From an uncultured Pseudomonadales bacterium (GTDB taxonomy: Bacteria; Patescibacteriota; Microgenomatia; UBA1400; UBA12028): DNA of 64,000 nucleotides. A model generated the notes under the pieces. The model did no database searches, was not told the DNA's origin, and saw only the letters and a list, made by a program, of their open reading frames with translations. The DNA lies in contig CAZWPK010000001.1 of the NCBI GenBank assembly GCA_964635905.1, positions 155,863 through 219,862 of the forward strand, read 5' to 3'. Positions 10,275 to 41,408 of this stretch are shown here, in pieces; within the stretch, counting starts at the first letter, position 1; every line of letters begins with the position of its first letter. Position numbers and translations under genes: made by a program.

Positions 10275-11628
10275 GCATCAGCGCCAGAATATTGGAAGTT
10301 CCGTGCGTAAAGAGCGTAGGCAACTCCAGCGCGTTCTCAATCGCATGATCAATCCAGCTCTTGTCTCCATGTCGTTCAAGTAAGCTCTCTAACTGTTTTT
10401 CTAACTCTGTAGGGAGGGCTCGCCTGGAAATCGAACGTTGCTCAAAAATATCCCGAATGTTATGTTCCCATTCTCCCCAGGGTTCTAAGGTGAGGATAAA
10501 ACAGCCTGCTGCGGCAGCATCGTACGCCATATCCCCAGAAGGTTTGGTAATCACCCCATCTGCCCAAGGGAATCCATATCTGATCAAATATTCATTCGCC
10601 TGTACGACATGGGGAGAATAGAGAATGCGTAGAGGAGAGGACTCGTCATCCTTGGAACCCGTGGGGATTCCTTCCTGTTTGGCCACCGTATGCATCCGTT
10701 CGCGTAAATCATCATGCACTCCGACATACACAATGAGTTGAATTCCCGATTCATTTCCTCCGACAAGCTGCTCGCGAACCAGGGGAGCAAGGGAGCGTAC
10801 ACACGCCTCAATTTCATCTTGGTTATTTCCCAGTCCACCGGTGGTGATTAACAGACGCAGCTTGCGGGTATGATGTGCCGCTACGGTTTTGTGTTTTCGT
10901 GCTGCCACGATACGTGGATCGACTGGAGGACCGGTGACGATGACGCGTTTGGGGTCAACCTTTTTTTCTAACACATCTGCAAGTTCAAGAAAGGAGGTTT
11001 TTGTCGTGTCATCAAACACACAAAAACGCATGGAAGGAAGCTCCGCATGATCTAAGTATTGTGGACGTACGTGAGGATCTGTGACAACCTGCACGACATG
11101 TTTCCCCATGCCAGCCAGGATGTTCCCAGTTTCGTAATGAAACGAGAGAATTGGCGTCTGCACGTGCTCAAATAAATACAAGAGCGGGGTGGTGATGGCT
11201 TTGGTAATCGGTAACTTATTTCGTGCCTTCGTATCCACAAAATCTTTGAGCATTTTGAGGAGCTTATGACGTGCCATCGCTTTCCCCACTTCTTCGGTAA
11301 ACTCAATCGTATTCCAGTCTTTGCTCGAGACATAATTGGTGGGATCAACAAGCCAAGCTTTTTTTGGGTCCACCGCCTTCTTCCATACACCCATTGCCGC
11401 CGCCATGGCCATGGAATAATGGGCCCGTGAGAACAACACCTCCGGTCCATTTTCTCCAAAATAATCACTTACACCATGGAATCGTGCTAACTCATCACGA
11501 AAACTTGCGGCTACCGTCACAATGGGAATTCGTGTTTTTTCTAATAATGCCCGATCCTTTTTGAGCAAATGCAAATTTTCAGTGGCATTAAAGTCAAGTG
11601 ATGTGTCCATTACTATCGAGCATAGCAT
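10261..11628 (-). CDS. GT-B fold glycosyltransferase (MGDG synthase/UgtP/MurG-like, GT28-type)
   Basis: C-terminal 'RLLITTGGLGNN' and 'VITKPSGDMAYDAAAAGCFILTLEPWGEWEHN' resemble GT28 donor-binding motifs. Assignment by eye. Confidence 0.5.
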   Translation of the reverse strand: MLCSIVMDTSLDFNATENLHLLKKDRALLEKTRIPIVTVAASFRDELARFHGVSDYFGENGPEVLFSRAHYSMAMAAAMGVWKKAVDPKKAWLVDPTNYVSSKDWNTIEFTEEVGKAMARHKLLKMLKDFVDTKARNKLPITKAITTPLLYLFEHVQTPILSFHYETGNILAGMGKHVVQVVTDPHVRPQYLDHAELPSMRFCVFDDTTKTSFLELADVLEKKVDPKRVIVTGPPVDPRIVAARKHKTVAAHHTRKLRLLITTGGLGNNQDEIEACVRSLAPLVREQLVGGNESGIQLIVYVGVHDDLRERMHTVAKQEGIPTGSKDDESSPLRILYSPHVVQANEYLIRYGFPWADGVITKPSGDMAYDAAAAGCFILTLEPWGEWEHNIRDIFEQRSISRRALPTELEKQLESLLERHGDKSWIDHAIENALELPTLFTHGTSNILALMPRTD

Positions 11629-11711
11629 GAGCGGAAGAGAGAAGAAAAGGTAGTCATTAGCTTGTGCTTTACTTCGGGTTTTAAGACCTTCATACTGGAA
11701 TTACAGATACT

Positions 11712-12369
11712 ATGCATGACGAAAATCTGAGAAAAGAAATTGAGCGAAAACGCTTAGAAGGAATTAGTGCAGAAGAACTTGCCCAGTTGTACTCTGTGCC
11801 ACGAGGAACGGTGTATCAGTGGGTTAGAAACCTAACCTTATCTTCAGATGCGAGGAGCCGCTTGGAAAGTAATAGTATATTGGGGAGTAAGAAAGAGAGA
11901 GAGACCAGCCTAAAAAATAAACAGTTACAAGAACTCAAGATCAGGGAGACTGTTGTATCTGAGCTTGCCACGATCCAGTTACCCATATCAGTGGGGAAAC
12001 TACTGTGTGCATTTTTGTATTGGGCAGAGGGCGCAAAAGACAGAGTACCTTACTTTTATTAACTCTGATCCAAAAATGATTCATACATTTTTATACCTCT
12101 TTAGAAGGTTCTTTAATCCTGATGAAACGAAGTTTAGAGTAATCGTTCATTTACATCCGTATCACAATCCTACAGAAGTACTTTCTTTTTGGGCCACTAC
12201 TACAAAAATACCGTTATCTCAATTCAACAAACCCTACTTAAAGAAGAATTCTGGGATTAATAAAAAAGACGGATACCTAGGCTGCATAAGTGTCCGATAT
12301 TATGATGCCAAAATTGCCAAAGAGATATTCTGGCTATATACTACTTTTTCGAGCACATTAGGGGCGTAG
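11712..12369 (+). pseudogene. HTH-domain protein split by a +1 frameshift (two overlapping ORFs 11712-12062 and 11953-12369); stop codon overlaps tRNA-Trp 5' end
   Basis: N-terminal HTH 'ISAEELAQLYSVPRGTVYQWVRNL'. Frames switch near an A-run at ~12044-12050 ('gcaaaagacagag'). Second ORF continues 220 aa total. No DDE or recombinase motifs seen. Confidence 0.4.
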
Positions 12370-12430
12370 TTTAGTGGCAGAACAGGAGACTCCAAATCTC
12401 TTAGCGAGGGTCCGATTCCTTCCGCCCCTG
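12360..12430 (+). tRNA. tRNA-Trp (anticodon CCA), no encoded CCA end
   Basis: Acceptor AGGGGCG/CGCCCCT, U8. D-stem GTTT/GAAC. Anticodon stem GGAGA/TCTCT, loop CTCCAAA. T-stem GAGGG/CCTTC (one GU), loop TCCGATT. Discriminator G. Folded by eye. Confidence 0.75.
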
Positions 12431-12538
12431 CAAATATATTTAAGCTTGATTAATCAATGTAATTAATTCAATAAGAACGGTCTTTATCTTCCTTCGAACC
12501 TACTATATTTTGCGGAGTCTTTCGTTATAATACTCCAA

Positions 12539-13783
12539 ATGAATTACGAAAGAATGACTATTGATGAGCTAAAGATATTTTTGCAAGAATCTGTGCCATC
12601 TCAAGAATACTTCCAAAATCCGTATTTTTACTTAGAAAGGATGAGGGAAATAAGCGCAATCCTTTGGATGCCTAATCTAAAGTCTTGGCTGGTGACAGAC
12701 TATGCAACAGTAAATCAAGGTTTAAAAGACAAACGATTCTCAGTAAATAGAAAACAAAAATTCTTCGATAATCTCTCAACAAGTGAGTCTTCAGAACTAC
12801 AACCACTTAGGAACTTTTTTGAGCGATGGTTAATGTTTATAGATCCTCCTTATCATGAAAAACTGAAATCACTGCTGACAAAGTCATTTTCACCTGCATC
12901 GATGCGTCATTTTTCTGAACGCATCAGTAGCTCTGCAGAGAAAGTTTTGATTGATACCCCAAATGGTGAAGTTGATTTTCTCGAATCTTTTGCTATTCCC
13001 TATAGCGTGAATGCGCTGGCAGAAATCCTTGGGATCGATGCTGACGACTATATATCTATTGTTCATTGGACTGAGCAGTTATTGAGTTTCTATGGTGGAA
13101 ATTCGGCAGATATTAGTAAGGGTAGGGAAGCACTGCCTGCATATCATGGGCTAGTTCATTACATGAATAGTGTCATCGATTCAAAAAAAGAGAATGCTGG
13201 AGTAGATATTATCTCTGAACTTGTTCATTTTATGGATGAGGGCGTTATATCAAGAGATGAATTATCAGCTATCGTCGCAAACTTACTTGTAGATGGCCAC
13301 GAGCCTGTAGCTCATACGTTATCGAACGGAGTGTATGAATTGCTCCAAAATCCAGAGCAATTAAGAAAATTAAATGACAATCCAAGTTTAATTCCACAAA
13401 CTGCAGAGGAATTCCTGAGAATAAATCCATATTTCCAATATAGCGCTCGGAGAGCTACTGAAGATTTGGAATTAGGGGACGTGAGTATCAAGGAGAATGA
13501 AAGGGTGATGTTTATGTTGGGAGCTGCTAATAGAGATCCAAAGGTATTCGAGTCTCCAAACGAATTACAATTAGACCGTCAAGAAAATAAGCATCTGTCA
13601 TTTGGACAAGGAATTCATTTTTGTTTGGGTGCGGCACTTGGCAGAGCAACGACCAAGATTGCGCTCGAAAAAATTATTTCGACAAAAAATATTAGTACTA
13701 TCCCAAATCAACGATACGACTGGAAACAGTCCGTAGGCTACAGAGGGCTTCAGAGACTGCCATTGCATTGGGAATCAAAGTAA
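12539..13783 (+). CDS. Cytochrome P450
   Basis: Heme-thiolate loop 'FGQGIHFCLGAALGR', ExxR 'EEFLR', I-helix-like 'LLVDGHEPV'. 414 aa. Very low GC. Confidence 0.85.
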   Translation: MNYERMTIDELKIFLQESVPSQEYFQNPYFYLERMREISAILWMPNLKSWLVTDYATVNQGLKDKRFSVNRKQKFFDNLSTSESSELQPLRNFFERWLMFIDPPYHEKLKSLLTKSFSPASMRHFSERISSSAEKVLIDTPNGEVDFLESFAIPYSVNALAEILGIDADDYISIVHWTEQLLSFYGGNSADISKGREALPAYHGLVHYMNSVIDSKKENAGVDIISELVHFMDEGVISRDELSAIVANLLVDGHEPVAHTLSNGVYELLQNPEQLRKLNDNPSLIPQTAEEFLRINPYFQYSARRATEDLELGDVSIKENERVMFMLGAANRDPKVFESPNELQLDRQENKHLSFGQGIHFCLGAALGRATTKIALEKIISTKNISTIPNQRYDWKQSVGYRGLQRLPLHWESK

Positions 13784-14284
13784 ATCTTTTACAGTATATT
13801 CAATAAGAGCATTTTTCTTTTCATATAAAAAAGAAAAGATTTTTGGTGTATTTGACTGTATTGCATCTAGAAGGAAATGGGGAATATTTTCCACAACTTC
13901 TTTGTTTTTCGGATTCAAAGCCCAATCTACCTCTTTCCACTCCAATATACCTTCTTCTGAAGCAATCAAATCTCTTGTCTCGATGATATCTGGAATTTGA
14001 AATACAAAAAGGTGAGTTCCGCCAATGCGGTCTTCATCCTGTATGTACCATTGTACGATCCCTTTATAGTTTTCATTTTTAACTTCTACATGAAGACCTG
14101 ATTCCTCGAAAAGCTCCTTTTTAATATTCTGATCGGGTGTTTCATCTATTTCAATCTTTCCCCCTAAACCATTCCAGAGGAGAGCATTTGGTGGATAGTT
14201 TCGCAGCAACATAAGCACTCTATTTTTGGAAATACAAAAGCCAAGCGTGTATTTGACGTCAAAATTTACTTTGTTTTCAATCAT
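13775..14284 (-). CDS. NUDIX hydrolase
   Basis: Nudix box 'GGKIEIDETPDQNIKKELFEESGL' (Gx5Ex7REUxEExGU pattern). 169 aa. Convergent and overlapping the P450 3' end. Confidence 0.8.
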   Translation of the reverse strand: MIENKVNFDVKYTLGFCISKNRVLMLLRNYPPNALLWNGLGGKIEIDETPDQNIKKELFEESGLHVEVKNENYKGIVQWYIQDEDRIGGTHLFVFQIPDIIETRDLIASEEGILEWKEVDWALNPKNKEVVENIPHFLLDAIQSNTPKIFSFLYEKKNALIEYTVKDLL

Positions 14285-15531
14285 ATAATTTCTATGGTCT
14301 GACTTCTTTCAGGCCCTACAGAAATAATTCTAACAGGTATCTGGAGTTCATCTTCAATAAACTGCACATAATTCTGGCAATTTTTAGGAAGTTCCGAATA
14401 TTTTCTAGCTGAAGAAATATCAGTACTCCATCCTGGTAGGTCTTTATAGATTGGTCTCACGCTCAATAAGTTAAATATCTGGCCTGGTTGATCATTCTCG
14501 TCGTAGGATGTACAGACACGAATATTTTCAAAGCTGGAGAGCACATCTAATTTTGTGAGTGCTATTTCTTTTACCCCATTCATTTTAATTGCGTATTTCA
14601 ACATAGGGAGATCCAGCCATCCGCAGCGTCTTGGTCGTTTTGATATAGTCCCATACTCATGTCCAACCTCTCTCAATTTTGCTCCAGATTCATTTTCTTG
14701 CTCAGTTGGGAATGGGCCACTACCAACTCGTATCGTATAGGCTCTCACTATTCCCAAAACGTCTATCTCCAAAGGAGGAAGACCTACATTTGGAAATACT
14801 GATGATGCAAGTGTATTGTAAGCAACAGTGAAAGGGTATGTGCCAAAGGAATAATCGAGATAGAACGCTTGAGCAGACTCAAAAAGATACTTGCTTGTCT
14901 GAAAATTTTCAATAATGACTTCTGCGACTGGTCTGAAATATTTACTTAGAAGTTTTCCGTAGTGCAAATATTGTTCGACAATTTCTGATACATTTAGCTT
15001 TGTAGACTTTCCATATACATGTTCTAGTCTTCTCTTCTTTAACTCCCATACTTCATTTATTTTTGAAGCTAATATCTCTTTGTCTAAGAGGTCAACAAGT
15101 CGTATTCCATCTCTGTTAGTTTTGTCTTCATATGAGAATCCGACACCTAATTTTAGTGAACCAACTTTTTGTGAACGATATTCCTCTGACGCTTCATCCA
15201 GAGCAACATGATACGGCATGATTACATGGCATCTCGGATCGATAGAGAGTTTGAAGCTCGAGCTAAATGTTTTAACTTTTTCAATTTCTTTTAATAAAGT
15301 AGAGGGACTTATAGAACAGCCTTGAGCTATGAGCACAGGGTGACCAGAAAGTACTGAAGACGGTAAGTGAGAGAGGGGAAGTTTGTTTTCTCCGACAACA
15401 ACGGTATGTCCAGCATTGTTTGCCCCATTGAAACGAACGCCAGCATCAAAACGATTTCCAAGAAAATCTGCAATTTTCCCTTTACCTTCATCCCCAAATT
15501 GCAATCCGAGGAGGATTAATGAATTTGACAT
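14281..15531 (-). CDS. Adenylosuccinate synthetase homolog (PurA-like), divergent IMP-binding motifs
   Basis: 'GDEGKGKIADFL', 'NNAGHTV', 'TKLDVL', 'RVGSGPFPTE', 'GWLD', C-terminal 'SVGPERSQTI' all PurA-like. Canonical 'GTTGRGIGPAYEDK' is replaced by 'KLGVGFSYEDK'. Confidence 0.75.
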   Translation of the reverse strand: MSNSLILLGLQFGDEGKGKIADFLGNRFDAGVRFNGANNAGHTVVVGENKLPLSHLPSSVLSGHPVLIAQGCSISPSTLLKEIEKVKTFSSSFKLSIDPRCHVIMPYHVALDEASEEYRSQKVGSLKLGVGFSYEDKTNRDGIRLVDLLDKEILASKINEVWELKKRRLEHVYGKSTKLNVSEIVEQYLHYGKLLSKYFRPVAEVIIENFQTSKYLFESAQAFYLDYSFGTYPFTVAYNTLASSVFPNVGLPPLEIDVLGIVRAYTIRVGSGPFPTEQENESGAKLREVGHEYGTISKRPRRCGWLDLPMLKYAIKMNGVKEIALTKLDVLSSFENIRVCTSYDENDQPGQIFNLLSVRPIYKDLPGWSTDISSARKYSELPKNCQNYVQFIEDELQIPVRIISVGPERSQTIEII

Positions 15532-15766
15532 AGTAAGTCTACTTAAATGTTCGGATATAGTACAGTAAATTGATTCCAGATCGAATAGGAAGTTTTAGCT
15601 TGAAGAGTATTTTTTGTTAAATAGGTTCTGACGTCCTCCACTAAGCCCTGCAAAATAGAGATAGATTGATATTGCAATCTAAAAACCAACTTTCTCGAAT
15701 ATCGATCCACAAAGACATACAAAACTGGGTTCACAGTGACTTTGGGAAATGATATATTCTTCTTTT

Positions 15767-16113
15767 ATGTCTAATCTTTATAAAACAGTGGACTCTGTAC
15801 GAATAGAGTTTGAAAAGGGAGCATCTCAGCAAAACTATTAGCCTCTTTATACTCGAGTTATCACAAACTTGAAGACATTGATTCATTTATAGATAGCTCG
15901 GTTAAACTCTTCCCATCACTAAATTGTGGTATCGCAAGTGTGTATCTTAAACATCTTCTGGATCAAGGTGTGGTTATAAATGGTAAATATGATAACAATA
16001 ATCATACTTTTCTTGCGCTATGTGATGGAAAGATTGTCTACATAACTGCAGATCAATTTGGTGGACCAAAGATATATATAGGTCCGATGAATTTTGCTTG
16101 GAAGTTAAGGTAG
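15767..16113 (+). pseudogene. Frameshifted copy of the 114-aa protein family represented intact at 26945-27289
   Basis: Translation 'MSNLYKTVDSVRIEFEKG...' then -1 shift '...LFPSLNCGIASVYLKHLL..NHTFLAL.DGKIVYITADQFGGPKIYIGPMN' aligns with 26945-27289 product ('LFPTLNCGIASVYLEYVL..HHTFLFIDGITVVDITADQYAGPVIYIGPLN'). Confidence 0.55.
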
Positions 16114-16150
16114 GTTCGAACATCTTCCACGCACCCCAGTAGAATGTCCA
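16113..16150 (+). repeat. Degenerate copy of tRNA-Trp 3' end (T-arm/acceptor-like), repeat A
   Basis: 'GGTTCGAACATCTTCCACGCACCCCAGTAGAATG' begins at the stop codon of the pseudogene. Aligns to tRNA-Trp 3' half 'GGGTCCGATTCCTTCCGCCCCTGCA' and to repeats B-E. Confidence 0.45.
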
Positions 16151-16163
16151 TTGTCATGAAATA

Positions 16164-16778
16164 TTAATCTACGGTAGGAGATTGATGGTTCAAAAACCGG
16201 TCAATTTTATTTTCATGCAAAACAATAAATTCTTCATTGACAATATTGACCTCAGGATCTCTAAGTTCATCAATTAGTCCTACAGCTTGTAACTTTGTGA
16301 GAATCACCCCACTTCGAGTATGACCGTTCTTCCATTGTTCTTGATAAAAATGAATTGCATTAATCGCAGTTTCTCTATCCAATCTCATTCCTGAGAGTAT
16401 TTTTCTGACGGCTTCCCATTCATGGTAGCTATCATCTTCTTTAAATAAACCTAAATTCGCATCAATACTTTTTCGTACATCGCGCATTTCCATTGGGTTC
16501 AGGGGTATGAGAGTTGCCTCAGATGGACTATCGATCAGGCCAAGTAATTCAAGTTTAAGTAAAACCGTGCCTGCTGCTCCCGAACCATTTTTTCGATCTC
16601 TTACTAAAATGTCGATCATCTTTTGAGCTGAAAGATGATCGCCAATCTCTAGGTTGAAAAGGATCTTGTTGATTTCTTGCCAATCGACTGATTCAACATA
16701 CGCCTCACTCCACTCTCTTTTGTTAGAAAAACCTAATCGTTGCCAATCAGGAAGCTGTTGGTGTTGATCACCGTCCAT
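16164..16778 (-). CDS. Hypothetical protein with internal duplicated segment
   Basis: 204 aa. Two similar segments 'GTVLLKLELLGLIDSP' and 'GVILTKLQAVGLIDEL'. No known motif. Confidence 0.4.
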   Translation of the reverse strand: MDGDQHQQLPDWQRLGFSNKREWSEAYVESVDWQEINKILFNLEIGDHLSAQKMIDILVRDRKNGSGAAGTVLLKLELLGLIDSPSEATLIPLNPMEMRDVRKSIDANLGLFKEDDSYHEWEAVRKILSGMRLDRETAINAIHFYQEQWKNGHTRSGVILTKLQAVGLIDELRDPEVNIVNEEFIVLHENKIDRFLNHQSPTVD

Positions 16779-16949
16779 ATGTGATCAGATTAGCACGAAA
16801 TATTTGTGAGAAATAGGCTCCAACATCCATTTGTTTCCACGATATGCAAATGAAGACGCTCACTCCTATATGGGGTATAAGCGAAAGACGACTGGGGAGC
16901 AGTGTTTACGTTATGCCGAAAATATGCAATTGGCTCTAGAACGGAAATT

Positions 16950-16990
16950 GGTTCGAACATCCTCCACGAGTCCCTGCAAGGACATTTTTC
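16950..16990 (+). repeat. Degenerate copy of tRNA-Trp 3' end, repeat B
   Basis: 'GGTTCGAACATCCTCCACGAGTCCCTGCAAGGACAT' shares 'TCCCTGCAA' with the tRNA-Trp end 'CCCCTGCAAA'. Lies 9 nt after the stop of a 32-aa ORF remnant. Confidence 0.45.
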
Positions 16991-17027
16991 TCGAGTAAAA
17001 ACTTTTGACAGACGCGAGGAATCGAAC

Positions 17028-17771
17028 CTAAAACTCTTTTAGGTAACAGATTTTCTTTTCTCCATAAAATCGAAGATTCTTTGCTTTCCCAGCAAAACGT
17101 ATTTCTACAGCTGCAAAGTGTTCTTCAGAATGAAAGCTAAAAGTAAATCCTTTTGAAAAAGCAAGATGAAGAGTGTCTCTTTCTACTGCAAATGACTGGA
17201 ATGAGAGTAGTTTTTCAGCAAGAGAATCAAGAATAGAGTCAATTTCTTTTTTGGAATTTGATGAGCTTTCTATTAATGCTTTACCTTCTTCGTCTTTCAG
17301 ACTCCACTTCGCATAGGTACAAAATACTGAATCATTTGAAAACCGAGCTTGAAGGATGGTTCCATAAACGCGGAATATTTTTGTGATTGCTTGACCTTCA
17401 AGTGCTTGGAAATCTAGAGAGAGCTGGTTTTTCGTGATAGGAACCTTTTGTGCCAGTTGCTTCAACAAGTGGTATCTATCGAAACTATGACAAGCTTTTG
17501 GATTCAGAATCCCTCTATTTCCAACAGGTGACTTTTCAATCCTATCCAATGCATATGCATGGAGTTCGGTTGGGAATGAATAGAGTTCAAACTCTCCCTT
17601 ATCTGTTTCGATAAAATGGCGCCAAACTTTCCGTCCAATATAGTCAAAATAGGTAACGTAGGTGATCGTACCTACTCCGAAGTGGTCAAGGATACCTTGT
17701 AGCACTGGCAAGCTATAAATACTCTTCATGCAACTAATTATATCTTGGAATGGATAAATGGGCTCGATCAT
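17028..17771 (-). CDS. Hypothetical protein
   Basis: 247-aa ORF, AT-rich. No motif recognised. Confidence 0.4.
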   Translation of the reverse strand: MIEPIYPFQDIISCMKSIYSLPVLQGILDHFGVGTITYVTYFDYIGRKVWRHFIETDKGEFELYSFPTELHAYALDRIEKSPVGNRGILNPKACHSFDRYHLLKQLAQKVPITKNQLSLDFQALEGQAITKIFRVYGTILQARFSNDSVFCTYAKWSLKDEEGKALIESSSNSKKEIDSILDSLAEKLLSFQSFAVERDTLHLAFSKGFTFSFHSEEHFAAVEIRFAGKAKNLRFYGEKKICYLKEF

Positions 17772-17934
17772 CTCACGCCTTTGGCGGGCAAGCCTGCAAT
17801 GTTTTAGTTGTTCCCCAGGTGTTTAGAGAAAACCATCTCTAAGGTGGATTAGAATAAAATCTGCAACGGAATTTGATCACGTCGGTTACGTTCGAATTGT
17901 TTCAAGACAAGACCGTCTGTTGTATTGACAAAAC

Positions 17935-18246
17935 ATGTACAAAACCTATCATTCTTGTATGGCTTTAAAGCTTAGTTTTAATGAGGAAAAGAATCAAATA
18001 TTAAAAGCTACTCGCGGAATCTGTTTTGATGATGTGGTTGAAGCGATCAAGAAAAAGAAGCTTTTAGCTACTATTGCTCATCCAAGCACCAAACATTCAA
18101 ATCAGTGGATCTATATCATTGAGATTGAAGGCTATGCCTACGCAGTTCCGTACGTAAAAAACGCAAAAAAAAATGAAATATTTCTTAAAAGTGTCTATGC
18201 AAGTCGATTCATGACAAAAAAGTATATAAAAAGGAGAAGCAAATGA
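17935..18246 (+). CDS. BrnT-family (DUF497) type II toxin
   Basis: ~100-aa protein, 'FNEEKNQILKATRGICFDDVVEAI...IYIIEIEGYAYAVPYV', consistent with BrnT ribonuclease toxin. ATGA overlap with downstream BrnA-like gene. Confidence 0.6.
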   Translation: MYKTYHSCMALKLSFNEEKNQILKATRGICFDDVVEAIKKKKLLATIAHPSTKHSNQWIYIIEIEGYAYAVPYVKNAKKNEIFLKSVYASRFMTKKYIKRRSK

Positions 18247-18548
18247 AAAGAATCCAAGATCCTTTTATCAATCTGGTATTGGACGAAGAAGAGAAAGCAC
18301 TAGAAGAAACCTTTGAGCGCGGAGATTTTGAGGAAGATGCTCATCTTGAAGATACAAAGAAAATGCTGGAAGAAGCTGCTACACGCTATAGTCAGCTACA
18401 TACCTCAAAACCAGTTACCATTCGTATCAAGCAGCTAGATTTAATAAAAGTGAAATCAAGAGCGAAAGCCAAGAATATTCCCTATCAAACATTGATTGGT
18501 TCAGTTATCCATCAATATGCAGAGGGGAATGAAAAATTAAGTTTATAA
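18243..18548 (+). CDS. BrnA-family antitoxin (C-terminal RHH-like)
   Basis: C-terminal 'VTIRIKQLDLIKVKSRAKAKNIPYQTLIGSVIHQYAEG' matches BrnA hallmark (..ITIRLD.D....K..A...G.GYQT.IN..LREY). Confidence 0.65.
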   Translation: MKRIQDPFINLVLDEEEKALEETFERGDFEEDAHLEDTKKMLEEAATRYSQLHTSKPVTIRIKQLDLIKVKSRAKAKNIPYQTLIGSVIHQYAEGNEKLSL

Positions 18549-18550
18549 TA

Positions 18551-18593
18551 GGTTCAAACATTCTCCACGTGTCTTCTCCCAAGAAGTGCACAT
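18551..18593 (+). repeat. Degenerate copy of tRNA-Trp 3' end, repeat C
   Basis: 'GGTTCAAACATTCTCCACGTGTCTTCTCCCAAGAAGTGCACAT' directly after the BrnA stop codon. Confidence 0.45.
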
Positions 18594-18692
18594 CGACAAT
18601 ACGACTCTCCTCAACTAAAACTGCTATCAGAGCAATTGAGAGTATGCATAATAGTAGTTGCAATACTAATCCGCATAATGTATACTCAGTTC

Positions 18693-19868
18693 ATGATTAA
18701 CAGAGCAATTTCTCACAAAATCAAAGAGCTTCATCGAAAATACCCGGTGGTTTCTATCGTGGGCCCAAGACAATCTGGGAAAACTAGCTTGGCACAATAT
18801 CTTTTCCCTAACCATACTTACCATAATTTAGAAAATCTGGATATCTTGAGTCTGGCGAAGAGTGATCCAAAGGGTTTTCTTAAAATAGGCTCAGGAGAGC
18901 GTTTTGTTATTGATGAAATTCAAAAATTTCCAGATTTACTTTCTTATATTCAAGTTGAAGTTGATAGTCAAAAAAAAGATGGACAATTTGTCATCACTGG
19001 ATCACAGAATTTTTCAATTGCAGAAGGCATTTCACAATCATTGGCCGGGAGAGTTGCAAATTTTGTTTTATTACCTCTAACTCATGAAGAAATTACTACC
19101 AGTGAATATTCAAATCCTGTCGCAAACACAATCCAACAAATCATACTAAATGGTTTTTATCCTAGACCTCTGGTAAAAAATATCCAACCAGAGGATTTTT
19201 ATCGTGATTACTTAAGTACATACATCGAGCGAGATGTTCGGCAAATAAAAAACATCGGTGATCTGAGCACTTTTCAGAAATTCTTACAACTTTTAGCAGG
19301 GAGGGTAGGGCAACTTGTTAACTTTTCTTCCCTAGCCAATGATGTGGGGGTGAACTATAAAACGATCGAGTCTTGGTTAAGCATTTTGGAAGCCAGTTAT
19401 GTTGTTTACACGTTGCAGCCCTATTATGAGAATTATGGTAAAAGAGTCATTAAAAGTCCTAAAGTGTATTTTTATGATGTTGGTTTATTATGTCACCTCT
19501 TAAAAATTAATTCTGTTCATGAGCTTGAATCACATTTTGCATATGGTCAAATCTTTGAAAATTTTGTCATTACAGAAATGATTAAAACCAATTTCAATTT
19601 AAGAAAGAATGAGCAAGTCTACTTTTGGAGAGACAGTAATAGTAACGAGATTGATGCAGTGATTGATTCAGGCGAAAATAAACATGGAGTTGAGATCAAA
19701 GCTGGGAGTACTTTTAATATTGACATGCTTAAAGGACTATCGCAATGGCAATCACTAAATCCATCTAAAAATACTCCCACTCATCTGGTCTATAACGGAG
19801 AGCAGGAGCAAAAGGTACGAGATCATCAAGTTGTGAATTGGAAAACATTTCTAAGCAGTTTGAATTAA
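18693..19868 (+). CDS. AAA-family ATPase with DUF4143-type C-terminal domain (COG1373-like)
   Basis: Walker A 'GPRQSGKTSL'. Walker B-like 'RFVIDEIQKFPDL'. Overall architecture typical of the ATPase/DUF4143 family. Start moved to ATG 18693 ('MINRAISHKIKELHRKYPVVSIVGPRQSGKT'). Confidence 0.75.
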   Translation: MINRAISHKIKELHRKYPVVSIVGPRQSGKTSLAQYLFPNHTYHNLENLDILSLAKSDPKGFLKIGSGERFVIDEIQKFPDLLSYIQVEVDSQKKDGQFVITGSQNFSIAEGISQSLAGRVANFVLLPLTHEEITTSEYSNPVANTIQQIILNGFYPRPLVKNIQPEDFYRDYLSTYIERDVRQIKNIGDLSTFQKFLQLLAGRVGQLVNFSSLANDVGVNYKTIESWLSILEASYVVYTLQPYYENYGKRVIKSPKVYFYDVGLLCHLLKINSVHELESHFAYGQIFENFVITEMIKTNFNLRKNEQVYFWRDSNSNEIDAVIDSGENKHGVEIKAGSTFNIDMLKGLSQWQSLNPSKNTPTHLVYNGEQEQKVRDHQVVNWKTFLSSLN

Positions 19869-19870
19869 AG

Positions 19871-19910
19871 GGGTTGAATATCTTCTATTAACCCCTGCAA
19901 ACATAGGTTG
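19871..19910 (+). repeat. Degenerate copy of tRNA-Trp 3' end, repeat D (best match)
   Basis: 'GGGGTTGAATATCTTCTATTAACCCCTGCAAACAT' vs tRNA-Trp 'GAGGGTCCGATTCCTTCCGCCCCTGCAAATAT'. Begins 3 nt after the AAA ATPase stop. Confidence 0.5.
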
Positions 19911-20002
19911 AATCAAAATAATCGATTTTTCTATCAGTCATGCAACTCGCGCACCTTGCTCAAATTTCTTCTGATACTTGATCTGTATAGTATGCTTTAA
20001 CC

Positions 20003-20785
20003 ATGAGTAAAGATAAAATTCTTTCTCCACTTTTTTCAGAAAAGAATGTTAAAAAGAAAACACGTTTCAACTTTTTAGGCATTGGTATCGGCAGAGATAG
20101 GGATAAAAACGGCATTGATAACCAGCTAGACTCCGCGCGTTTTAGAGAATTGATGGGGGAATGGTATAAAGAGGAAAAAACGATACAAAGAGATCGTGAT
20201 GCGGGAAGAAAAGTCTCAAGGGAAGATGTTCAAAGAATTGACCGTCTCCGACTAAGAATTATCACTGAATGTATTCAGATTTTGGAGAAATGTAACAGTC
20301 CTAGATCCTACAGGAATTTATTAGAGACAGCAGCGTGCCTTTATTATGAGGCTGCAAGATTCCGTAGTTATGAGCTTATCGAAATTGCTCAGAAATACGA
20401 GCAAATAGCGGTACACCAACTTAAATTGCAAAAACCAACAGAAAATGTGAGCAATTTATTTAAAGGCTTGCCGAGAGCAAGGGACTTAAATCATGAGCTT
20501 AGTGCGATTGTAACTGGTGACGCTCGCTTTGACGAGGCTAAAATTAAAAGGATCTCAGGAGAGCTTATTGCACTTTACTATGCCTATGATGAGAACAAGT
20601 TAGCTCCCTATGACATGGGGAGAATTAAGTTTGACTATAGTACGGAACATATCGAGTTTAACGTCTTAAGTCTAGGAGGATGGATTATTGCTCAGCTAGT
20701 ATTAGAAGCACATAGTTTAGGTATCACGGATTTTTCCTCTTATATTCTCTTAAGGAACAGGATAGAGGACTTTCCGAAACGGTGA
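20003..20785 (+). CDS. Hypothetical protein
   Basis: 260-aa ORF. No motif recognised. Confidence 0.4.
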   Translation: MSKDKILSPLFSEKNVKKKTRFNFLGIGIGRDRDKNGIDNQLDSARFRELMGEWYKEEKTIQRDRDAGRKVSREDVQRIDRLRLRIITECIQILEKCNSPRSYRNLLETAACLYYEAARFRSYELIEIAQKYEQIAVHQLKLQKPTENVSNLFKGLPRARDLNHELSAIVTGDARFDEAKIKRISGELIALYYAYDENKLAPYDMGRIKFDYSTEHIEFNVLSLGGWIIAQLVLEAHSLGITDFSSYILLRNRIEDFPKR

Positions 20786-20867
20786 AACCTAAGAAATCGA
20801 AAGATTTTCTCTCAAGCAGAGAACCAATCAACAATCTCACTGAGTAAGGAACGTTCTAGTGAAATAA

Positions 20868-21545
20868 CCTGACCATCTAGTGCGGATACAGTCTCCAGTT
20901 ACTATTGCAGATTAAGAAGCAGAGAAGAGTATTCGCTCAATTATTTCCACTGCATTCCCAGACCATCGAATTCTAGGAGAGGAAGAGGGGACTAACACCT
21001 CGGATTTTTCGTATTTATGGATCATTGATCCAATTGATGCAACAAAGAACTATTTACGACACATCCCACTTTTTGCTACCCAGCTTGCGCTGATGAAGGA
21101 TGGAGAAGTGATTCTTGGAGTATCGAACTCTCCTGAAATTGGCGAACTGCTGTATGCGGAGAAAGGACAGGGAACCTATTGCAATGACACAAAAATCTCG
21201 GTCTCACAGAAGTCATCGATTCAAGAAGCATATCTAAGCTATCGTAGTGTCGGATATTTTCAGAGAAGCGGTCGCATGGAACAGTTTTTGAAGCTAGAAA
21301 ACGACACGCAGGCTCATCGTGGCTTTGGAGATTTTTGGGGATACCATCTATTGGCCCAAGGGAAAGTAGACATTATGCTGGAAGGGAATACGAAGCTGTG
21401 GGACGTTGCGGCAGTATCCATTCTTGTCAGCGAGGCAGGGGGAACGGTCACAGATTTTGAAGGGAACCCCATCAACGAATCCACAACATCCATTATTGCC
21501 ACAAATGGACACCTTCATACTGCAGTGGCAGGATACTTTTTCTAA
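20868..21545 (+). pseudogene. Inositol monophosphatase (SuhB/IMPase) family pseudogene: 5'-truncated with in-frame TAA
   Basis: In-frame translation '..PVTIAD*EAEKSIRSIISTAFPDHRILGEEEG...WIIDPIDATKNYL' matches IMPase motifs (DLVTEAD.AAE..I...YP.H.ILGEE; WIIDPIDGT.NF). TAA at 20913-20915. First ~40 codons absent. The intact-looking part is ORF 21093-21545. Confidence 0.6.
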
Positions 21546-39257: not shown

Positions 39258-39665
39258 CGCATTTGCAATATTGCTAATGCTATAACAGTAATCATTGCAT
39301 CCTTCTGATATACTATCGCAAGGAAGTGACCATAATCACAAAAAGAATGACGTATTGAATTGGCGTGTGGCCCTAGGTAATTTCTTGGGGAGACGAGGAG
39401 AGGGGCGAATCTTTGAATGAGATTCGCAATCGGACTGAATAGTTGGAAAACCAACGATTCAAGTATCTGCGGGAACCCTCCGGTGCATGAACATCGTTAC
39501 GACGGTCAGTTAAACCTCTTTTGTAAAAAAGAGAACAAAGCTGTCTTCCGGATTCATCTTCTTTTTGATTCGCTTGCTTCTTTCAATAGATCCACTGTTT
39601 AACGTGGCGGTATAACGCTGCAGTTAACTTTGGTGACTTTTTATAGCGCCCTAAGGAGCTAAACT

Positions 39666-41408
39666 ATGTGTGGAATTTTTTGTACCGTGGGAACCAACCC
39701 GACAGCCGCCCAACGCACGCTTGAAGGATTAAAAACTCTAGAATATCGTGGGTATGACAGTTGGGGAGTAGCATTTGCAGACCTTCGTTCTCAAGTGGAA
39801 GTGTATAAACAAGTTGGCAAGATCGGAAAAGCGACGCTTCCAGCGATTCCGGATAACACCATCGCGATTGGACATACCCGTTGGGCAACCCACGGGGGAG
39901 TGACGGTAGAAAATGCCCATCCCCATACCGATTGTTCTGGACGCTTTGCAATCGTGCATAACGGCATTGTGGAAAACTACCAGGAACTCAAAAACGAACT
40001 AACAGCAGTAGGGCACACGTTTACTTCCACGACGGACTCTGAGACCATCGCCCATCTAGTCGAAGAACTTTCCAAGACCGACGCCATCGATCAAGCGGTG
40101 CTGCACACCGCCAAACGCTTACGGGGACTAAACGCCATCATTGTCTTGGATGCAAAAACTCAACGGCTGTATGCAGTTTGCCAAGGATCCCCCTTAGTCG
40201 TTGCCAAGAATGATCAAGGATATCAATTGGCCAGTGATGCGGTCGCCTTCACCGATCCATTAACCCAAGTCCTCTACCTGTCCCCAGGATACATGGTGGA
40301 ACTTTCGCTAGATTTCTGTCGACTCAGTACCATTGACACGAACTCCGAAGAACCCTTAGCCTGGCAACCACTTCCTAAGCTCAATGCCAGTACCCAGTTA
40401 GGCCCACATCCGCATTACCTGATCAAAGAGATCCATGAGCAGCCAGGACTGGTTCGTACCCTAGCCGGAAGTGAAAGTACTCCGATTGCATTCTCTCCTA
40501 GTGGTCGAGTCTTCCTAATCGGTTGTGGAACGGCCTATCATGCCGCATTGCTGGCAACCTACTGGTTTGCCCAAACAGGAAAACTTGCGTCGGCATATAG
40601 CGGCAGTGAGTTCTTTTCGATTCGTCATGTCGTAAGCTCGAAAGATACTGTGATCTTTTATTCCCAGAGTGGAGAGACGATTGATGTGGTTGAACATGCA
40701 CGGTATTTGGCAGAGAAGAAGATTTCCACAATCGCCATCACCAACAACGCCCATTCCTCGCTGGCACGCATCGTACACACCGTCATACCCTTGGACGCCG
40801 GAACTGAGCAATCGGTCTTGGCAACCAAGTCATTCACGCTAATGCTGGCGCATTCCTTGCGATTACTGCACCCCATGGAAACACTCAAAAGTGACTTCCT
40901 GGCTGCAGCCAACGCGATGGACGCGCTCGTTTCGGTTCCAGCCTTGGAACAAACAATCACCCCGGTTGCGAATCTGATCAAGTCGACCCAGCATTTATTT
41001 GTCATCGGACGTGGTGTCTGGTATCCCTTGGCTCTCGAAGCTGCCTTAAAAATAAAAGAGGTGACCTACATCCATGCGGAAGGATTTGCGGGAGGGGAAC
41101 TCAAACATGGAGCAATCGCCCTCATTTCAACGGGAACCCCATGTTTGGTCTTTGTCCCGAACGATGACTCTAGAGAGATCATTCTCTCCAATGCAATGGA
41201 ACTGAAGGCCCGCGGAGCAGTGTTAATTGGAATATCGTCCACCAATGAAGAAATGTTTGATTTCCACATTCCGGTTGCCTGGACCAACCAAGCGGCGCCA
41301 CTGACCGCCATTGTGCCGATGCAGCTGTTGGCTTATCAACTCGCAATTCTCTTGGGACGCGATCCGGATAAACCACGTAACTTAGCAAAATCTGTCACTG
41401 TACGCTAG
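39666..41408 (+). CDS. glmS: Glutamine--fructose-6-phosphate aminotransferase (isomerizing)
   Basis: N-terminal nucleophile 'MCGIFCTVG', GATase-2 'RGYDSWGVA', 'HTRWATHG', two SIS domains, C-terminal 'GELKHGAIALI' and 'LAYQLA..LGRDPDKPRNLAKSVTV'. Confidence 0.9.
   Translation: MCGIFCTVGTNPTAAQRTLEGLKTLEYRGYDSWGVAFADLRSQVEVYKQVGKIGKATLPAIPDNTIAIGHTRWATHGGVTVENAHPHTDCSGRFAIVHNGIVENYQELKNELTAVGHTFTSTTDSETIAHLVEELSKTDAIDQAVLHTAKRLRGLNAIIVLDAKTQRLYAVCQGSPLVVAKNDQGYQLASDAVAFTDPLTQVLYLSPGYMVELSLDFCRLSTIDTNSEEPLAWQPLPKLNASTQLGPHPHYLIKEIHEQPGLVRTLAGSESTPIAFSPSGRVFLIGCGTAYHAALLATYWFAQTGKLASAYSGSEFFSIRHVVSSKDTVIFYSQSGETIDVVEHARYLAEKKISTIAITNNAHSSLARIVHTVIPLDAGTEQSVLATKSFTLMLAHSLRLLHPMETLKSDFLAAANAMDALVSVPALEQTITPVANLIKSTQHLFVIGRGVWYPLALEAALKIKEVTYIHAEGFAGGELKHGAIALISTGTPCLVFVPNDDSREIILSNAMELKARGAVLIGISSTNEEMFDFHIPVAWTNQAAPLTAIVPMQLLAYQLAILLGRDPDKPRNLAKSVTVR

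Follow-up and report, generated by a model that had tools for sequence, protein, structure and literature searches.

A clade of PurA-type proteins with an altered substrate pocket, probably still adenylosuccinate synthetases, and its coupling to NUDIX hydrolase and cytochrome P450 genes in a patescibacterial genome

What does an adenylosuccinate synthetase (AdSS) do once residues that bind the substrate in canonical PurA proteins have been replaced? The question is raised by a gene, here called purA', in a stretch of 64,000 nucleotides (nt) of contig CAZWPK010000001.1 from an uncultured bacterium of the Patescibacteriota. "The window" denotes this whole stretch and all coordinates refer to it, while L-numbers denote metagenomic loci that were compared with it. 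We consider it probable that purA' encodes a functional AdSS dependent on guanosine triphosphate (GTP) from a separate, so far undescribed clade in which the sites for phosphate and aspartate have been rebuilt, and that the gene lies in a horizontally acquired unit with a NUDIX hydrolase gene and a cytochrome P450 gene (P450). The three genes are:

14281..15531, minus strand: purA', AdSS of 416 amino acids (aa) of the 'GSLKLG / T-x-A / VSK' variant clade (open reading frame (ORF), PF00709, signature, AlphaFold 2 (AF2) model)
13775..14284, minus strand: NUDIX hydrolase, MutT/MTH1-like, 169 aa (ORF, PF00293, Nudix box)
12539..13783, plus strand: cytochrome P450, CYP107-like, 414 aa (ORF, PF00067, haem-Cys motif)

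A first-pass annotation of the sequence had described the 416-aa purA-like ORF and the NUDIX gene downstream on the same strand. Both were confirmed from the ORFs and the sequence, as was their overlap by ATGA, in which the stop codon of purA' meets the start codon of the NUDIX gene (...ATA TGA / ATG ATT...). The P450 gene is convergent to the NUDIX gene, with 9 nt of overlap at the 3' end of the latter. It was absent from that annotation and is conserved together with the pair in other loci.

The purA' protein scored 463 bits with the Pfam family PF00709 (Adenylsucc_synt; gathering threshold 27) and passed both NCBIfam cut-offs for PurA, NF002223 with 446.1 versus 402 bits and TIGR00184 barely with 395.7 versus 395.55 bits. 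The GTP and P-loop motifs that had been listed, GDEGKGK, NNAGHT, TKLD, RVGSGPFPTE, GWLD and SVGPERSQTI, were all found. The claim that GTTGRGIGPAYEDK is KLGVGFSYEDK in purA' held in part: the residues are indeed substituted, but the shortened loop implied by this wording resulted from mis-slicing by eye. HMMER alignments to at least 20 PurA sequences of solved structure were full length without gaps in the loop, and KVGSLKLGVGFSYEDK of purA' paired gap-free with KIGTTGRGIGPAYEDK of the solved PurA structures. The loop reads GSLKLGVGF where the canonical one reads GTTGRGIGP. Its length is unchanged and the substitutions are T128S, T129L, G130K, R131L, P135F and A136S; here and below residue positions are those of Escherichia coli PurA unless the window numbering is stated. 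The other two segments in contact with inosine monophosphate (IMP) were altered as had been claimed, with AQAFYLDYSFGTYPFTVAYNT in place of the canonical IMP-contacting segment and GTISKRPRR in place of GATTGRRRR.

Mapping of the variant residues on a list of IMP contacts bore out the earlier view that this PurA homologue departs from the canonical residues at substrate contacts. The list was taken from the AdSS-IMP structure of Helicobacter pylori, where Thr129 and Thr239 form hydrogen bonds with the 5'-phosphate of IMP (PMC11571797). The catalytic and GTP-binding elements of purA' are kept, in window numbering D14 (Asp13), K17 (Lys16), H42 (His41), K327 (Lys331), D329 (Asp333) and S404/G406/P407. 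The ligands of the base and the ribose of IMP are kept as well: D14, N39, G124, Q221, V269 and R299 correspond to Asp13, Asn38, Gly127, Gln224, Val273 and Arg303. Further retained residues are Arg143' of the partner subunit, Arg305 and Leu228. We take Gln224 to be a contact of the IMP base, as in E. coli PurA. From mutagenesis of the same enzyme positions 300-302 and 131 presumably belong to the loop that covers the aspartate/hadacidin site. Within the canonical pattern G-x-T-T-G-R-x-R-R of this loop Thr300 is replaced by Ile, Thr301 by Ser and Gly302 by Lys in purA', and Arg131 is replaced by Leu, while Arg303 and Arg305 are present. The roles assigned to Thr128/129, Thr300/301 and Arg131/303 follow the H. 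pylori contact table and background on the E. coli enzyme.

An AF2 model of purA' had a predicted local distance difference test score (pLDDT) of 91.2 and a predicted template modelling score (pTM) of 0.91; only residues 221-240 were weak. In a Foldseek search the model matched PurA structures, including ligated E. coli PurA (complexes with IMP, guanosine diphosphate and hadacidin), with template modelling (TM) scores of 0.92-0.93, and in the fold search sequence identity to the solved structures was at most 38%. Compared with the bacterial enzymes (E. coli 1CG0/1GIM, B. anthracis 4M9D, H. pylori 6ZXQ/8QWA) purA' has the same fold and length class, the P-loop, the Asp13/His41 pair, the guanine-specific TKLD, Arg143' from the partner subunit and Arg303/Arg305, and its clade shares the link to purB and guaB. 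It differs from them in a signature of 13 positions (see below), in the replacement of Thr129, Thr239 and Arg131/Thr300/Thr301/Gly302 and, as far as the window copy is concerned, in a location outside a purine operon next to a NUDIX and a P450 gene.

The altered pocket is not peculiar to the window. About 90 of the best 120 database homologues (44-100% identity) carry the substitutions of purA', and canonical motifs appear among these 120 only below approximately 45% identity; such sharing is far beyond chance. A DNA pattern for the variant loop retrieved 118 metagenomic loci and had no match in viral contigs. In a neighbour-joining tree of 258 sequences, i.e. a distance tree calculated without support values, 151 variant sequences formed a single clade with no canonical sequence inside. 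Relative to 107 canonical PurAs the clade is conserved in a different state at 13 positions: H53S, N70Q, S100D, I106V, T128S, T129L, R131L, P135Y/F, V238T, S240A, T300V/I, T301S and G302K. The change at position 239 is T239V/T, and every variant has Thr at position 238. In 98% of the canonical proteins position 131 is basic (Arg or Lys). The variants are almost always basic at position 130 or 302 while position 131 is Leu, which looks like a relocated charge.

Clade members with a named source come mostly from Gottesmanbacteria and other Patescibacteria. The nearest PurAs with canonical motifs are those of Roizmanbacteria, Daviesbacteria and other Microgenomates, where the gene is accompanied by purB or lies in a complete cluster for de novo purine synthesis that includes guaA. 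The named carriers of the variant (Gottesmanbacteria) and of the nearest canonical form (Roizmanbacteria, Daviesbacteria) did not overlap in the two lists of the best 120 matches. Public sources call clade members plain 'adenylosuccinate synthase', and a literature search returned no paper that joins AdSS with NUDIX paralogues or with the purine metabolism of the Candidate Phyla Radiation. On the strength of the tree and the signature the clade appears to be a large, monophyletic and previously undescribed branch of PurA.

A side branch of the clade consists of P0006 and P0007 (L210:5159-6406 and L084:8001-9248). These proteins have GDEAKGK and NNAVHT (G15A, G40V), keep Thr129 and read YKRKARR in the aspartate loop; their neighbours do not include purB, guaB, NUDIX or P450 genes. 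Judging by these motifs their catalytic competence is doubtful or altered.

Is the variant still a purA in function? Gene order was inspected for the 37 distinct variant genes that had at least 1.5 kilobases (kb) of flank on each side. In 31 of them purB and guaB were both found within 2.5 kb, with the variant between the two. Strings of purM-purP-purP-purB-purA'-guaB occur in eight loci (L004, L119, L133, L160, L181, L185, L198 and L199), and purB is adjacent to purA' also in L207, L214 and L215. In L195:2474-5164 (minus strand) PurB and PurA' are fused in one ORF of 896 aa with an AdpP-like NUDIX gene upstream and guaB downstream, a fusion known from a single metagenome contig, where an assembly or sequencing error is possible. 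This context fits an orthologous replacement which would still make adenylosuccinate. Because of the purB-guaB operons, which are the strongest evidence, we concluded that the clade most likely consists of genuine synthetases using IMP, aspartate and GTP.

The position of guaB directly next to the variant also suggested a replacement of GuaA, i.e. amination of xanthosine monophosphate in concert with PurB. As an explanation for the clade in general this idea was dropped, since L114 and L166 have a normal guaA near the purB-purA'-guaB operon, close to guaB.

In the reading that we prefer, purA' would phosphorylate O6 of IMP, and aspartate would then displace the phosphate to yield adenylosuccinate. 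The clade would have rebuilt the side-chain ligands of the 5'-phosphate (T129L, T239V/T, V238T, S240A) as well as the loop closing over aspartate (R131L, T300V/I, T301S, G302K). Most members, in small genomes of low GC content (GC, guanine plus cytosine), would fill the place of purA in a purB-purA'-guaB operon. The window copy, from a sub-branch that has left this operon, is carried as purA' followed by NUDIX with a convergent P450, next to tRNA-Trp. The MutT-like NUDIX hydrolase, whose translation is coupled to that of purA', probably yields monophosphates from purine nucleoside triphosphates or diphosphates. Candidate substrates are deaminated or oxidised species such as inosine triphosphate (ITP), xanthosine triphosphate (XTP) or 8-oxo-GTP, and the enzyme would either clean the nucleotide pool or supply the synthetase. 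This reading does not account for the P450.

Several observations weigh against a plain AdSS. The two 5'-phosphate ligands Thr129 and Thr239 are both replaced by hydrophobic residues in purA' (Leu126 and Val236 in window numbering), with Asn38 and Arg143' kept, and both threonines, like Thr301 and Ser241, are invariant in 107 of the 107 canonical PurAs. Neither purB nor guaB was found within the 64-kb window. Moreover, three loci carry a purA with canonical motifs in tandem with the variant in one purB-purA-purA'-guaB operon (L118:2608-5280, L197:2426-5041 and L203:1174-3738). The first copy has GTTRRGIGP and GTTTGRPRR, the second the variant signature, and the canonical copy falls into the clade formed by the PurAs of Roizmanbacteria, Daviesbacteria and other Microgenomates; such tandems are unexpected if both copies are equivalent. 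The lack of support values for the tree counts on the same side. Finally, the neighbour-joining tree places the window purA' in a sub-branch of 15 leaves, within a group of 27 leaves that keeps Gln224, and this sub-branch lies mostly outside purB-guaB operons and beside genes of tailoring type.

The relatives of the window gene within this sub-branch define the three-gene unit. L212 and L148 have the order of the window, purA', NUDIX and convergent P450. In L208 purA' and a convergent P450 are present, with two NUDIX genes and a carbamoyltransferase gene on the opposite side, and L207 has purA' and NUDIX plus a divergent NUDIX-purB pair. Only purA', NUDIX and P450 are common to the window and these four loci, at 48-70% identity. 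The translational coupling of purA' and NUDIX is conserved in the relatives, all of which lie on contigs of 30-40% GC. Since the trio alone is shared and the relatives are of low GC, it follows that the genes move as a unit which was probably acquired by the host; horizontal acquisition is the most likely origin by this comparison. In the window the following features surround the unit:

15532..16163, minus strand: non-coding region upstream of purA', 632 nt (no Rfam family at E<=1)
12360..12431, plus strand: tRNA-Trp(CCA) (ARAGORN; Rfam tRNA 61.5 bits)
11600..21000, no strand assigned: low-GC accessory stretch containing the three-gene unit (composition profiles)

Composition profiles gave a GC content of 34-40% over approximately 11.6-21 kb versus 45-50% in the flanks; that of the three-gene unit is 37%, with profile values of 36-40% against the same background. 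Together with the nearby tRNA gene, this contrast speaks for a horizontal origin of the unit. The tRNA-Trp gene forms the left boundary of the low-GC stretch, which also encodes an AAA_14/DUF4143 ATPase and ORFs without family match. Upstream of purA' the Rfam search yielded no riboswitch or leader at E<=1. Promoter and terminator scans of this region found sites no commoner than expected by chance, promoter-like sites not exceeding those in shuffled sequences.

The first-pass annotation had taken the purA-NUDIX link as a coupled nucleotide-processing pair. The link is not accidental, as orthologues of the window NUDIX follow purA' in L212, L148 and L207 (50-52% identity), and the pair may have a specialised role in the sub-branch of the window. 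The NUDIX protein scored 34.9 bits with PF00293 (cut-off 21.1). Its Nudix box is G-x5-E-x7-KELFEESGL, in which the glutamates are intact and the Arg of REUxEE is Lys. The closest solved structures are MutT (3fk9) and MTH1 (E 1e-8 to 1e-6), which share the Nudix glutamates and differ from the window protein at the Arg/Lys position. MutT and MTH1 convert damaged purine triphosphates to monophosphates. The window NUDIX stayed below every NCBIfam equivalog cut-off (NF008044 MutT 26.4 versus 148 bits; TIGR00586 22 versus 97.9 bits), and by these scores the resemblance to MutT/MTH1 is at the superfamily level only. In a PADLOC search for defence systems purA' had no match and the NUDIX gene had only a weak one to a candidate family (PDC-S07, E 6e-8).

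A second NUDIX family, AdpP/NudE-like and 185-186 aa long, is orthologous in seven loci (L085:7444-8004, L089, L135, L167, L195, L207:6569-7129 and L208:2396-2953; 41-45% identity), in each case directly adjacent to the variant purA' or to purB. The possibility that the window NUDIX is an orthologue of this AdpP/NudE-like gene, which lies upstream of purA' in operons of the L085 type, was rejected as the alignment is limited to the Nudix box. Two NUDIX families are thus tied to the clade, and NUDIX is therefore a recurrent companion in two independent forms.

The P450 scored 84.5 bits with PF00067 (cut-off 22.8), and FGQGIHFCLG fits the haem-thiolate motif FxxGxxxCxG. No specific subfamily cut-off was reached; the best relatives in the PDB are CftA, BioI, YjiB and EryF. 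The gene is conserved beside purA' in L212, L148 and L208 (48-61% identity). By its sequence the P450 is a generic CYP107-like enzyme.

Other loci of the sub-branch have gene neighbourhoods of their own. In L214:480-6821 and L215:4373-10419 purA' is accompanied by genes for a 545-aa protein with weak similarity to radical S-adenosylmethionine enzymes (PA0069/SPL-like), a guanylate-kinase-like protein and a MutT-like NUDIX, with purB divergent; to judge by gene content the cluster looks like a dedicated pathway of purine-nucleotide tailoring. In L087:7404-12063 purA' is fused to a methyltransferase (PF09445/PF13649) in a protein of 679 aa. The flanking genes encode a LOG-family protein (PF03641) and an isopentenyl transferase (IPT; PF01745), which are of cytokinin type, on a contig of 30% GC with many small ORFs without family match.

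Because these sister contexts look like nucleotide tailoring, we retained as a possible, though unlikely, alternative that purA' of the sub-branch is a specialised paralogue, which aminates, in place of plain IMP, a 6-oxopurine ribotide modified by oxidation, alkylation or other tailoring. The NUDIX hydrolase would then either provide the monophosphate substrate from a triphosphate or, like TubG in tubercidin synthesis, remove phosphate from the product. The base or nucleoside would be modified by the P450, and together the three genes would constitute a small mobile pathway that leads to a modified adenine nucleotide or nucleoside. This would account for a trio kept together at 48-70% identity in surroundings that all differ, for the neighbours in L214/L215, L208 and L087 and for the changes G225A and T226F, which are specific to the sub-branch and lie next to the base-contacting Gln224. 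There is also a precedent: the toyocamycin and tubercidin pathways of 7-deazapurine nucleoside synthesis employ a PurA/PurB-type conversion of a 6-oxo to a 6-amino group, by dedicated or borrowed enzymes, together with TubG, a NUDIX hydrolase of 168 aa that acts on the nucleotide product (PMC6112128). By analogy these pathways may be regarded as the nearest functional precedent for the purA-NUDIX pair.

Yet the pocket signature of the sub-branch is identical to that of the operon-type, housekeeping-like members, and Asp13, Gln224, Gly127, Val273 and Arg303 are unaltered. Unlike the 7-deazapurine clusters, the window has no scaffold-building genes near the unit: the ORFs between 8.7 and 20.8 kb include no GTP cyclohydrolase I, QueC/D/E, purine phosphoribosyltransferase or GMP-reductase homologue (GMP, guanosine monophosphate), and the neighbouring ORFs have no family matches. 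A P450 is not part of the precedent pathways, and that of the window is generic. A wider proposal, by which either the whole 'GSLKLG/VSK' clade or the window's sub-branch has shifted its specificity and the purA'-NUDIX-P450 unit and its relatives are mobile mini-pathways to a modified adenine nucleotide or nucleoside by PurA/PurB-type amination, with NUDIX setting the phosphorylation state, appears to us unlikely as well, and slightly more so.

Very unlikely in our view is a duplicated target that confers resistance, i.e. a pocket altered to be insensitive to a hadacidin-, alanosine- or hydantocidin-like AdSS inhibitor made by the neighbours or present in the environment. purA' does have the appearance of an accessory gene copy for an essential enzyme, carried horizontally beside an oxygenase and in some relatives a carbamoyltransferase, and the changed residues 300-302 and 131 presumably lie within the aspartate/hadacidin-site loop. 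But the operon-type members, for which the variant is seemingly the sole purA of the operon, share the pocket, so that its origin is not that of a resistance allele, and no inhibitor pathway was recognisable.

The first-pass annotation had also proposed an enzyme acting on a nucleotide other than IMP in analogy to phage PurZ. As a PurZ-type enzyme purA' would form N6-succino-2-amino-(deoxy)adenylate from (deoxy)GMP, and NUDIX would act as the (deoxy)GTP pyrophosphatase in the role of MazZ. The gene logic is similar: PurZ/PurZ0 with MazZ likewise combine a PurA homologue with a neighbouring nucleoside triphosphate pyrophosphatase, and the succinylated product would go to PurB (PMC8342488, PMC12884076). 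In addition, L214/L215 contain a guanylate-kinase-like gene and PurB, host functions which are borrowed by Z-phages (PMC8342488). Nevertheless the proposal found no support and is highly improbable. Members of the PurZ group have Ser or Gly in place of Asp13 (PMC12884076), which is kept in purA'; they use ATP or dATP (adenosine or deoxyadenosine triphosphate) with deoxy-GMP, whereas TKLD with Asp333 is kept in purA' and points to GTP rather than ATP. They are of the short archaeal type with about 340-365 aa versus the long form of 416 aa. The score of purA' with NF038379 was 100.5 bits versus a cut-off of 300, and the Foldseek TM score was 0.63 to PurZ (7ODX/6FM1) versus 0.93 to PurA. PurZ is phage-borne with DatZ and DpoZ; the neighbours of purA' include no DatZ, MazZ or DpoZ, the clade motif had no match in viral contigs, and the identity to phage PurAs is at most 39%. 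MazZ itself has the fold of MazG-HisE and not that of NUDIX hydrolases (PMC8342488). The purB-guaB context of the clade, too, speaks against PurZ.

Carriage of the variant by phages or plasmids was dismissed as well, the best identities being 39% (phage) and 42% (plasmid), all to canonical PurAs, with the clade motif absent from viral contigs.

The remaining proposal, a decaying or non-functional purA duplicate, could draw on the loss of the 'universal' Thr129, Thr239, Thr301 and Arg131 and on the accessory low-GC location, but it is hardly credible and was rejected because of the conservation data: the substitutions are fixed in 151 sequences and conserved in their new states, the catalytic residues of purA' are intact, the ORF is intact in every relative, as are all three genes of the unit in diverged loci, the coupling to the downstream gene is conserved, the AF2 model is confident, and the ratio of nonsynonymous to synonymous substitution rates (dN/dS) was 0.09-0.22 for purA', NUDIX and P450 and 0.09-0.15 for purA' pairs with measurable dS, values that come from 5 of 12 comparisons, dS being saturated in most pairs.

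What distinguishes the clade is the coordinated replacement of invariant residues in all of its breadth while the purA slot of the operon is still occupied. If its members truly make adenylosuccinate, they represent a natural experiment in rebuilding the sites for the IMP phosphate and aspartate, which bears on the design of AdSS inhibitors and on annotation rules. Should the off-operon sub-branch have a new substrate, the unit would offer a new way of making modified purine nucleotides, a discovery of the PurZ kind.

Some further features of the window were observed. Directly upstream of tRNA-Trp, positions 11712-12369 (plus strand) contain overlapping ORFs of 116 and 138 aa. Read together they resemble a single gene broken by a frameshift, whose product would have a helix-turn-helix at its N-terminus as well as a LAGLIDADG-like segment; for the 138-aa part Pfam gave no match. 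ORFs of 103 and 101 aa with a 4-nt overlap at 17935-18548 (plus strand) form a putative toxin-antitoxin pair by their layout. The AAA_14/DUF4143 ATPase at 18636-19868 (plus strand) matches PDC-S01, a candidate defence family of PADLOC (E 1.9e-101), and a homologue with 32% identity is located near purA' in L214. Finally, a glmS ribozyme at 39351-39557 (plus strand; 45.3 bits versus a cut-off of 37) precedes glmS (39666-41408). The host would represent a sparsely sampled lineage that branches deeply, as the best named relative of the encoded GlmS is from Candidatus Woesebacteria with 48% identity.

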